20,003 nucleotides of DNA, from IMG/VR virus record IMGVR_UViG_2563366959_000003. One strand, given 5' to 3'. The first letter of the stretch is position 1. Every line of letters starts with the position of its first letter. The stretch comes from a virus. Its lineage: Duplodnaviria; Heunggongvirae; Uroviricota; Caudoviricetes. A program made the position numbers. Of this stretch, positions 6,001 to 9,000 are shown one piece after another.

Positions 6001-9000
6001 AAGACATTAACCCATCTGGCTGGCGGACGCTGGGCTGAGTTCCATACGGCAAGGCGGGGATTTATCCGGCTGGGAAAACGACTGGGCTTTGAGCGAATGC
6101 CGGATGATGAGGATGGCTTCATGGTGTTCAGGATAGCGGTCTGACTGCTACAGTTTTCATCATTGTGTTTAAACCAACATTGTAATTCACATTCTGACCC
6201 TGCTCCGGCAGGGTTTTTTGTTATCCAGGGGGCCATTATGGGTGGAAGTAAAGGCGGTGGTGATACCAAAGTAAAACCAACAGCAGCGCAAATAGCACAG
6301 GAAGAAGTGGCCTGGAAAGGGTGGCAGGATTACAAAAATATCCTCCGCCCGGCTGAAGATAACTTCATGGAAAAGGTCGATGACCTGAACAGTGAGCAGC
6401 AGTACGACAATATTGCTGGCACCACAAATCTGGGGTATCAGAAACAGTTTGGCGAAGCACGGAAGGAGCTTGCGGGTAATCTTGCTCAGTCCGGCGTTGA
6501 CCCATCCAGTGGTCGTTTTAATGCGGTAATGAATGCGAACCAGAGTGACCAGGTAACCGGGCAGATTGACACAACCACACGGGGGCAGGTATCGCAGGCA
6601 GATAAGTATGTTGCCGGGCTACAGGATGTTGCTGCTCTCGGTTCTGGTCAGAAGGCGGATGCGTTACAGAGTTTTAACTCTCTGGCAGACAGCAGTCTGG
6701 CAAAAGCTAAATCGGATGCACAGGCGGCGTTTACGAAACAGCAGGGGCGAGCCTCTCTTGTTGGCGCTGGTCTGGGTGCGGCAGGTGCATATGCGATGCA
6801 TAAGGCTGGCGGTAGCGGAGGAAGTGGCGGTGCTAAAACACCTGGCACCGGCGCTAATGCCATTCAGCATCAGGCTCAGAACTGGAGACTGTAATTATGG
6901 AGTATGGCAAATACGAAACTCTCGCAAGGGCTGGTTATTCAGGAGCAGACCGCCCACAGGGTGACTGGCAGACGTCAGCAGCGCTGACACGCCAACAATA
7001 CGACGACTGGCGAACCAGATATTTGCCCCGCGTGGCAAGGCTGGCTGACCTTGGGGAGAACAACAGTCTGATGAATGCACAGCTTGCACGGGTGGGAGGC
7101 CTTGCCACTTCCAGTCTCCGTACAGCGCAGATGGCGCAGGATAACCAGATGGCGAGATACGGGGTAAACCGCCCGGATAATCCCGACAGTAATACGCTGG
7201 GGTTACGTAATGCCCTGGCAATTGCTGGCGCGAAAAATGGTATCCGTGAAGCCGAACAGGATCGCCAGATGAATATTCTGACGGGGGCTTCTGCACCGGC
7301 AAGACAGAAACTGAGTGTTGGCGGCCAACTGGTGGCAGCGTAAGGGGGCAATATGGGATACGGTTTACTGGATATTGCAAATCAGTCGCGGCGTGAGGCA
7401 TTACAGGGAATAAGTGACGCAGACAGACGACGTGAAGAAATTGAGGCTGCGAACAAACAGATGGCGGCGCAACAGAAAGCGCAGAACAAGCAGAATATCG
7501 GTACGGGCATTGGTACGGGGGCGGCTATTGGCGCATCCGTTGGTGGTCCTGTTGGTGCTGTTGCTGGAGCAGTAATTGGCGGCATTGCTGGTTCTTTGTT
7601 TTAAGGAGTGGTGAATGAGCGGATTTGCACAGGGGTTACTTGCCGGATTCAGCACCGTTGACCAGGCAATGACCCGTCGTAAGGAGCTTGGTCTGCGTGA
7701 AGCACAGCTTGCCCGGCAACAGAAAAATAACGAGCGCGATTTTGAGTTTGCGCAGTCTCAGTTTGAACATAATAAAAACGTTGATCAGCGGAACTTTGAT
7801 TACAGAGCCAAAGTTGACGACCGTAATTATGCACTGAAGGAAAGGGAGTTTAACGCTAACCAGAATTACCGGAATGCGTCACTGGGTATGGAGCAGCAGC
7901 GACTCCAGTTGCAGAAATACAACCAGCGACGGCTTGAGTATAACGATATGATTGCCCATAGCCAGCCACTAATGGAAGCGCTTGGAAAAGCAATTGAGGC
8001 TGGCGATCAGGAGGCTGCAACGCGTCTGTTCGGGCAGCTGCCAAAGGGACATCCATTAATTCTTATGTCAAACGAAGGCTATGCAGCGAAAGCGGGTCAG
8101 GCCGTGATCAACCTGCAAAAAATCTTTGGTGATAAGCCGGACATGGCGATCGATTCGCTGAATACCCCGGAAAATCTCGATGTGCTTTCCGGCGTGTTTG
8201 CCCCGGAACTACAACAGCGTATTGGCATGCCTGATTCAACCGGGGACAAAACGATAAAAGAGGCCAGGATTGGCAGTATCGTACCAGCGCAGCAGGAAGG
8301 GTACGTACTTATTGGCCTTGATCTCACATACAGCGATGGCTCCACCGCGCATAAACCTGTAACAGAATACGGCAGTGCGCACCCTGATGATCAAACCGTG
8401 CTGGCGATACCCGTTGATAAGGCTATCGCTCAGGTCAGGGATCGCAGCAAATTTGCAGAGATATCGAAAAATTATGGTTATTTTATGCCGAAGCAGCAGG
8501 GACTTTCTCTGAAAGAGCTTCAGAAGGGGGCCAGCAACGTAGCGGCGGACGCGATCAAGAATGGCGGTAATGCTCAGGCTGCGGTGGATGAATATTATGC
8601 TGCGACTGGTTCACAACCGCATCAACAGAAAATTCAGCAACAAAAACTTCAGCAACAGGTTATCAACTGGGCGGGAGATGATCCTGATAAGCTGTCATTT
8701 GCCAGAAATGTAGCGGCCCGTCAGCCTGAAATGCTGGAACCTCAGAATCAGAAATTGCTGGAGAACGGGTATGCGAATTTTCTCCGTATTCAAAAGGCCA
8801 GGGGGGAACAGGCCAGAGATGAAAGTGCTTCATCTGCATCTCAGTTTATCCGTGGACTGAAACAGAATTACGCCCAGTAATTCACGATATTCCATTAATA
8901 CCATTTCCTGATGCCCGGCCATTGTGCCGGGTTTTTTTATGGAGTCTGTATGGCCTATTCAGAGGAACAGCGTCCTGAGGCGCAACTCGGTAACCAGAAT

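Follow-up and report, generated by a model that had tools for sequence, protein, structure and literature searches.

The 20,003-nucleotide (nt) stretch of viral DNA analysed here (IMG/VR record IMGVR_UViG_2563366959_000003; called the window below) is the late region of a lambdoid Shiga toxin (Stx) podophage prophage of the 933W/Sp5 type. Positions 5700–9700 match VT2-Sakai (Sp5), PA2 and many further Stx-converting Sepvirinae podophages with 100% identity, and the region is present in 186 phage records. Our subject is a pair of intrinsic terminators, T1 (6196–6219) and T2 (8913–8938), and the genes that they separate, all of which lie on the + strand. The first gene, P133 (5743–6144; ECs1237/vb_24B_43), opens a conserved six-gene module; T1 sits in the spacer between it and gene A (6238–6894; ECs1238/vb_24B_44), which is followed by gene B (6897–7343; ECs1239/vb_24B_45), gene C, encoding a Gly-zipper membrane peptide (7353–7604; ECs1240/vb_24B_46), and gene D (7615–8880; ECs1241/vb_24B_47/Sp5 ORF79). 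T2 occupies the spacer between D and a giant gene of 8.4 kb (8950–17331; ECs1242/vb_24B_48/Sp5 ORF80), which encodes 2,793 residues and is the last long late-strand gene in the window. Gene starts were aligned with those of E. coli O157:H7 Sakai (NC_002695.2 coordinate = window + 1,287,073). The Pfam domains LPD38, LPD5, LPD1 and MuF_C mark the giant product as a polyvalent protein, a class predicted to be packaged in the head and injected with the DNA (PMC5512222). The giant open reading frame (ORF) can be called from an ATG at 8911, inside the T2 hairpin, and the phi24B annotation uses that start; the RefSeq start of Sakai ECs_1242 is the ATG at 8950, which is preceded by a Shine-Dalgarno (SD) sequence and matches what the preliminary description of this DNA had assumed.

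That description placed terminators at 6198–6219 and 8913–8938, 18 and 11 nt before the ATGs of A and the giant gene, and this is borne out by the sequence itself, by a consensus terminator scan, which lists both, and by a strict census. T1 begins 52 nt past the P133 stop codon and has the stem CCCTGC/GCAGGG (6198–6213) closed by the loop TCCG; the stem is extendable to GACCCTGC/GCAGGGTT, giving 8 bp with 5 GC pairs and a 4-nt loop. Its U-tract (TTTTTT, 6214–6219) leaves no gap, as TTTTTTGTT directly abuts the stem, and is followed 7 nt on by the SD-like AGGGGG (6227–6232) and then by the ATG of gene A at 6238. T2 begins 33 nt past the D stop codon and has the stem GCCCGGC/GCCGGGT (8913–8932) with the loop CATTGT, that is 7 bp with 6 GC pairs and a 6-nt loop; here TTTTTTTAT directly abuts the stem, TTTTTTT runs to 8938, and the SD GGAG (8941–8944) lies only 2 nt past the U-tract, with the ATG of the giant gene at 8950. 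The folding calculation proposed as a check on the preliminary description came out in its favour: a folding energy of −15.0 kcal/mol was obtained for the T1 segment of 36 nt (z = −4.7; none of the 200 shuffled sequences did as well) and one of −15.4 kcal/mol for the T2 segment of 41 nt (z = −2.5). The core stems alone contribute −11.5 kcal/mol in T1 and −11.1 kcal/mol in T2. Neither hairpin has an upstream A-tract, so both are expected to act on + strand transcripts only. The claim that the gaps are too short for a promoter holds as well, since they measure 18 and 11 nt, and a scan for sigma-70-like promoters, limited to consensus sites, gave no + strand match between 4670 and 17383.

The strict census (perfect stem of at least 6 bp with at least 4 GC pairs, a loop of 3–7 nt, and T at no fewer than 6 of the 7 positions that follow) returned four sites in the window, all intergenic: 5337–5355, T1 and T2 on the + strand and 526–508 on the − strand. 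In 300 dinucleotide-preserving shuffles the same rule found 0.05 ± 0.23 sites (maximum 2), which, together with the conservation described below, rules out chance hairpins. Other RNA elements were considered for the same spacers. Rfam at E ≤ 1 gave no RNA family, riboswitch or small RNA match at T1 or T2, larger intergenic folds were no better than shuffles (z = −0.13 and −1.98) and the 5′ flank of T2 is divergent; a leader attenuator or riboswitch with an alternative structure was rejected on these grounds. Pairing of UUCC, 5′ of T2, with GGAG could sequester the SD; it is seen at low ensemble frequency in the minimum free energy fold, and the flank is, by eye, not conserved in the Aeromonas clade introduced below, so this candidate was also set aside. 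Among the orphan Hfq sites (EcOnc) of Tree et al. recovered from supplement searches none falls at T1 or T2; the sole nearby Sp5 site is EcOnc53, at a hok/sok-like locus upstream of P133.

Within the Stx phages both spacers are found in all 186 records that contain the region. Each occurs once per genome and is confined to these Stx-type records, which excludes a mobile or repeated element carrying the hairpins. T1 lies in a 93-nt P133–A spacer (present in 186/186), of which there are eight variants: stem and U-tract are invariant and a single loop base varies (T or C), while 14 of the 44 upstream columns and also the SD region are variable. Such invariance is conservation without covariation evidence. 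The T2 stem exists in four versions that are 100% paired, and two of its seven pairs carry compensatory changes: one has gone from G-C to A-U via changes on both sides and the closing one may be G.U, A-U or G-C. The 5′ flank diverges strongly among the same variants while the hairpin is kept.

Much more distant relatives separate the histories of the two elements. A tblastn search with D and A revealed two clades with the same gene order, one made up of the lambdoid Aeromonas phage phiARM81mr and about 35 Aeromonas prophages (A 44–57% identical) and the other of Vibrio phages (A about 25–29% identical); a protein homologue search with D gave only close E. coli copies among the best 120 matches listed. 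The common order is an ORF70-like gene, a tail-fibre gene, a P133-like gene, A-, B-, C- and D-like genes and a giant gene of 3,000–3,200 residues. P133 is 40% identical to p64 of the Aeromonas phage and 19% identical to Vibrio phage 0015, both of which stand immediately before the A-like gene. This shared order indicates that the module is older and larger than A–D plus the giant gene, as the preliminary description had delimited it: P133 belongs to it too, and T1 lies inside the unit and not at its border. In the Vibrio phages the C-like and D-like genes are separated by a gene for an HNH endonuclease, which runs on the opposite strand.

Wherever the D-like gene and the giant gene could both be located among the Aeromonas-type loci examined (28 distinct loci), a 26-nt hairpin stands before the giant gene, with folding energies of −12 to −20 kcal/mol; it is followed by TTTTCTTTT(G/T), 10–16 nt, CGAGGA and then the start ATG. 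The hairpin occurs in 14 variants, among which compensatory changes affect 5 of the 11 stem pairs and pairing holds in 94.8% of cells; with the partner strand slid, pairing drops to 35–54%, and none of 500 shuffles matches the observed values. In six of these prophages 1.0–2.3 kb of + strand accessory genes stand between the D-like gene and the hairpin, and the hairpin stays beside the giant gene, as would be expected of an insulator that ends moron transcripts. The accessory genes at this hot spot (loci L095, L104, L105, L107, L111 and L115) include those for KilA-N/Ant-like proteins of about 300 residues, for an unknown protein of 306 residues and for one of 156 residues. The Vibrio phages have a weaker hairpin, GCCCGC-ctagt-GCGGGT followed by TTTCTTTTG, directly after the stop codon of the D-like gene. 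The pattern of pairing and position across these clades indicates that T2 is an ancient, position-conserved partner of the 5′ end of the giant gene. The same arrangement bears on an annotation: the phiARM81mr (KT898134) giant gene p69 is annotated from locus position 14660, while the frame is open from about 12674 (region 12801–14660), and a hairpin, U-tract, GAGGA and an ATG at 12933 match the start in all related prophages, so the deposited p69 start is about 1.7 kb too late.

T1 has a different origin. The gap between the P133-like and A-like genes is 7–10 nt in every Aeromonas and Vibrio locus, and the comparison indicates that T1 is an addition specific to the Stx clade which arrived with the 93-nt spacer. 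Relatives with gene A at 60–90% identity, which might date this event, were absent from a scan of IMG/VR and GTDB genomes, where only Stx-type (at least 92%) or Aeromonas-type (44–57%) loci came up, and the sole additions from a tblastn search of phage genomes for such intermediates were Vibrio phages whose spacers were identical. The deep conservation of T2 before a polyvalent-protein gene and the clade-specific origin of T1 are what is new here, and both are modest findings.

T1 and T2 have company along the late operon. The gene lom (4579–5313, + strand; ECs1236; PHROG Lom) is followed by an intrinsic terminator on the same strand at 5337–5361 (hairpin 5337–5355), found by the consensus scan, by folding and by the strict census; it reads ACCCGC-TGTGATG-GCGGGT and then TTTTTTAT, and folds at −11.3 kcal/mol. 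This corrects the published paper on the phage RNA 24B_1, according to which ARNold detected a Rho-independent terminator neither within lom nor in the spacer between lom and vb_24B_43. In phi346, a near-identical phage, the major capsid gene is followed by GCCGGG-ttttc-GCCCGGC and TTTTT, with an SD 2 nt on and an ATG 15 nt past the T-run, the next structural gene is followed by GGCCCGC-gtcat-GCGGGC, TTTTT and then an SD and ATG, and a bidirectional terminator stands after the tail-fibre genes. The two capsid-proximal sites have phi346 locus coordinates between 500 and 1000, upstream of the region equivalent to the window, each with an SD and ATG within 15 nt; PHANOTATE starts a gene at 970 of that locus, a position that the second hairpin covers, and the ATG at 997 seems the likelier start. 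Taken from sequence, T1 and T2 are two of at least six predicted terminators in the late region, several of which share the layout stop codon, hairpin, U-tract, SD and ATG. The idea that these two specially gate the module is therefore not upheld, since the same layout recurs after the capsid gene and the next structural gene and a further terminator follows the tail-fibre genes.

A hairpin with a T-run also lies inside the P133 coding sequence (5846–5877: ACGCCTGCC-TTAAAAA-GCAGGCGT, then TTTGTTTTG), and the Aeromonas p64 gene has a near-identical counterpart (phiARM81mr locus 9809–9842). It encodes the conserved peptide AC(L/R)(K/Q)KQAF and may be a by-product of protein conservation, though third-codon positions are identical as well.

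Published genetics place essential genes beyond these terminators. In-frame deletions in Sp5 (Mondal et al., PMC5155283) showed that ORF79 (D) and ORF80 (the giant gene) are essential, the mutants packaging DNA and forming no tails; deletion of ORF70 (607–2307; ECs1232) or of ORF71, a gpJ-like tail gene (2304–3572; ECs1233), had the same phenotype, while deletion of ORF76 lowered lysogenisation. The essential genes ORF65, 67, 70, 71, 79 and 80 (PMC5155283) sit downstream of the terminators after the capsid gene, the next gene, the tail-fibre genes and lom, and of T1 and T2. Since essential genes lie downstream of all these terminators, late transcription must be terminator-resistant along the whole operon. 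A source of such resistance is available upstream. Q-dependent antitermination at PR′-tR′ was described upstream of stx2 in the Sp5 prophage (Sy et al., PMC7547250); the antiterminator gene Q is ECs_1203 (1265889–1266323, + strand), outside the window and about 27 kb upstream of T1, and stx2AB and all late genes through ECs_1242 are on the + strand, the same as Q.

Expression data agree with a module that is linked to induction. By reverse transcription quantitative PCR in phi24B (Riley et al., PMC3342100) lom was strongly expressed in lysogens, unchanged by induction and 'uncoupled' from phage regulation, while the 8-kb gene (CM7, coding sequence 49148–57571) was induction-linked, which was called surprising because it is downstream of lom. 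The two genes are 3.6 kb apart on the same strand. The contrast that puzzled these authors can be explained by the terminator at 5337, T1 and T2, which lie between them and would separate the giant gene from constitutive lom transcription. Fold changes on norfloxacin induction of phi24B are available from RNA-seq (Veses-Garcia et al., PMC4651098, Table S4): 134 for S, 96 for stx, 75 for the small terminase, 30 for the portal, 31.7 for the capsid gene vb_24B_29, 28.1 for vb_24B_31, about 52 for vb_24B_33–35, 22.3 for ORF70, 15.5 for ORF71, 15.8 for the outer membrane protein (OMP)-like gene vb_24B_41, 15.7 for a second row with the same label (probably vb_24B_42), 3.0 (not significant) for lom, 8.3 for A, 7.0 for B, 7.3 for D (p = 0.059) and 5.6 for the giant gene (p = 0.31). 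No drop in fold induction accompanies the two capsid-proximal terminators (31.7, 28.1 and 51.9).

We propose that T1 and T2 are probably ordinary intrinsic terminators, which stop unmodified polymerase in the lysogen and are read through by Q-modified polymerase after induction. In the lysogen the polymerase to be stopped would come from lom, from the hok/sok-like locus or from any spurious promoters, and the two terminators would keep this transcription out of the tail-assembly genes A–D and the giant gene. After induction Q would modify polymerase at PR′, some 27 kb upstream in the same orientation, and make it terminator-resistant, so that it passes T1, T2 and the other terminators of the operon and A–D and the giant protein are made together with the other late proteins. 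Both the termination at T1 and T2 in lysogens and the Q-dependence of read-through are what we infer here. The preliminary description had likewise attributed expression to read-through by a Q-type late transcript; the upstream Q and PR′ on the same strand in Sp5 support it, and the read-through by Q itself retains the standing of an inference. Its expectation of a module that is low in the lysogen and serves a lytic or virion function agrees with the tail-essential roles of D and the giant gene and with the induction-linked expression of the latter, and was largely known already.

Several observations weigh against this proposal. Induction of A–D and the giant gene (5.6–8.3-fold) is far below that of the other late genes (15–134-fold), which could reflect basal leak, partial termination, distance from PR′ or time, or antisense RNA inflating the giant-gene baseline, causes that these data cannot separate. 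T1 follows the conserved P133 and not the boundary of an accessory insertion, and leaves P133 on the unprotected side. In the Vibrio phages some 70 nt, among them a promoter-like TTCACC-17-TATGAT, separate the hairpin from the giant gene (about 77 nt from hairpin to start codon), and the T2 equivalent there may be a simple operon boundary. Finally, the gene in the Q position of the Aeromonas phage, a putative Q, has only a weak Pfam zinc-finger match, below the cut-off.

Antisense transcription of the giant gene is itself suggested by several features. In the data of Tree et al. ECs1242 is one of the top Hfq-bound features, and its antisense reads far exceed the sense reads in uninduced Sakai. 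The phi24B annotation has antisense ORFs within the gene, of which vb_24B_52c was induced 10.5-fold, and minus-strand terminator-like hairpins with long T-runs lie inside it at 12308–12266 and 12284–12241. One or more antisense RNAs within the giant gene seem likely. As for the proteins, a 2025 phi346 paper with virion proteomics reports the capsid, the tail fibre and one structural protein only, and neither A–D nor the giant protein.

The conservation of T2 raises the question of whether its hairpin and U-tract are a dedicated ancient control element of the giant gene, beyond a generic operon terminator. We regard this as doubtful, yet deserving of consideration; if true, a giant, possibly harmful, virion-delivered protein would be strictly dependent on terminator-resistant late transcription, and T2 might also fix its low copy number per virion. 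A related alternative, compatible with the insulator role, is that T1 and T2 act during lytic growth as partial terminators or attenuators that lower expression stepwise, T2 in particular keeping the giant protein low relative to A–D, as the preliminary description had suggested for T2. T2-like elements stand directly 5′ of the giant gene across deep divergence, the Vibrio phages included, and upon insertion the hairpin stays with the giant gene and not with the D gene. The fold induction falls from 134 to 5.6 along the operon, from 15.7 to 8.3 across the lom terminator and T1 and from 7.3 to 5.6 across T2, and there are familiar cases of partial terminators that set stoichiometry within operons, such as T-phi after gene 10 of T7. 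However, Q-modified polymerase is highly terminator-resistant in lambdoid phages, the step at T2 is small and not significant with fold change confounded by the basal level, and no such fall is seen at the two capsid-proximal terminators, so that we think attenuation in lytic growth unlikely.

A mainly post-transcriptional role, whether in protecting the 3′ end of a processed upstream mRNA or with the U-tract as an S1 binding or standby site that aids translation, seems to us improbable. The U-tract is indeed close to the SD, 2 nt away in T2 and 7 nt in T1, the spacing of hairpin, U-tract, SD and ATG recurs at other late-gene junctions and in the Aeromonas relatives, and U-rich leaders are known translational enhancers; but these features match an intrinsic terminator exactly, and that reading is simpler; moreover, the distance of about 77 nt in the Vibrio phages means that tight coupling to the SD is not universal. 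That A–D and the giant gene are instead transcribed, with no read-through, from promoters of their own, hidden in upstream coding sequence or of a non-sigma-70 type, is scarcely credible: the promoter-like site of the Vibrio relatives and the restriction of our scan to sigma-70 consensus sites leave it some room, but transcription from any promoter ahead of T1 or T2 would be stopped at these terminators, the gaps are too short to hold one, the scan had no match over the region, the sole candidate −10 upstream of T1 is variable (TGTAAT, TGCAAT, TGCACT) and expression is induction-linked.

The genes just upstream of P133 are a plausible source of the lysogen transcription that T1 and T2 would stop. 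Between ORF71 and the conserved module lie an OMP-like gene (3587–3865, + strand; ECs1234; PHROG outer membrane protein), a membrane protein gene (3871–4488, + strand; ECs1235; PHROG 'moron... membrane associated protein'), lom and a hok/sok-like toxin–antitoxin locus (5397–5723, + strand; identified by Pfam and by sub-threshold Rfam matches). The whole stretch 3587–5723 is absent from the Aeromonas and Vibrio relatives, in which the tail-fibre gene adjoins the P133-like gene, so it appears to be an inserted, moron-like accessory cluster of the Stx phages. Morons (Juhala et al. 2000; Hendrix) are promoter–gene–terminator cassettes between late genes, such as lambda lom and bor. The absence in relatives that characterises them applies to 3587–5723 and not to P133, A–D or the giant gene, all of which are conserved, and the terminator expected after an inserted gene is found after lom (5337–5355), while T1 and T2 follow the conserved P133 and D. 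Strictly speaking, then, neither T1 nor T2 is a moron terminator, though both can insulate against moron transcription; as the terminator of a lom/hok moron T1 is rejected in this strict sense because P133, a conserved module gene, intervenes. Its position downstream of lom, the hok-like mRNA and P133 nevertheless fits that of a putative stop for lysogen-active transcription.

The hok/sok-like locus is apparently intact, with a region like the hok mRNA leader, a 46-residue Hok ORF (5546–5686; Pfam HOK_GEF, 33.2 bits against a cut-off of 22) and a 3′ hairpin (5692–5723); the Rfam sok/hok leader match scores 35.6 bits, below the gathering score of 59. Two antisense RNAs, the Hfq-bound EcOnc53 and 24B_1 (phi24B 45711–45692), map to the minus strand at about 5453–5507, and in uninduced Sakai the Hfq cross-linking and analysis of cDNA (CRAC) data of Tree et al. 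have reads on both strands of the ECs1236–ECs1237 spacer. 24B_1 was published as a 'microRNA-size' phage RNA in a paper that never mentions 'hok'; judging from its position, it and EcOnc53 are probably a Sok-like antitoxin RNA or a fragment of one. A second hok/sok locus, full-scoring, lies on the minus strand at 18346–18670 (Rfam sok, 113.5 bits at 18496–18670) and corresponds to mokC/hokC, ECs_1245 in Sakai.

At the other end of the window an ORF at 10–219 encodes the C-terminal part of a transposase of the IS66 family (Pfam DDE_Tnp_IS66_C, 63 bits), and upstream of about 240 the window departs from Sakai; phi346 and Sakai have there the sequence from just downstream of the tail-fibre genes. 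This prophage copy therefore has an insertion sequence inside the late operon, upstream of the essential ORF70, which could be polar or the sign of a defective prophage.

The proposed insulation has parallels in several known systems. With lambdoid Q antitermination (lambda Q; 933W/Sp5 Q at PR′-tR′) it shares the phage type, the upstream Q and PR′ on the same strand and a late transcript that crosses several terminators; the textbook case, however, is tR′ beside the promoter, while T1 and T2 are distal, 27–30 kb downstream, and their dependence on Q is putative. The likeness to morons lies in the inserted cluster, with a lysogen-expressed lom and its own terminator at 5337–5355, and in the Aeromonas accessory genes upstream of the T2-like hairpin, which use that hairpin as their downstream terminator; the difference is that T1 follows the conserved P133 and that T2, in an ancestral operon, pre-dates any insertion. 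T7 T-phi is likewise a terminator between structural genes, and here too there is one right after the major capsid gene, while the protein encoded just after T2 is probably required in low copy number. T7 has its own polymerase with a defined read-through fraction, whereas here the host RNA polymerase would be made resistant by Q and the dosage step is hypothetical. With the polyvalent proteins of Iyer, Burroughs, Anand, de Souza and Aravind (2017; PMC5512222) the giant protein shares LPD38, LPD5, LPD1 and MuF_C and a place among virion genes; that paper concerns protein domains, and a conserved terminator before such genes is not described there. The polyvalent-protein model does not predict the role in tail formation that is seen in Sp5 genetics.

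No new mechanism is called for by these results, and they have no direct bearing on toxin expression. More broadly, T1 and T2 would be a concrete, testable example of distal late-operon terminators that only antiterminated polymerase should pass. In the wider family, one of these late-operon terminators, T2, appears to have been kept with a polyvalent-protein gene over deep phage divergence.

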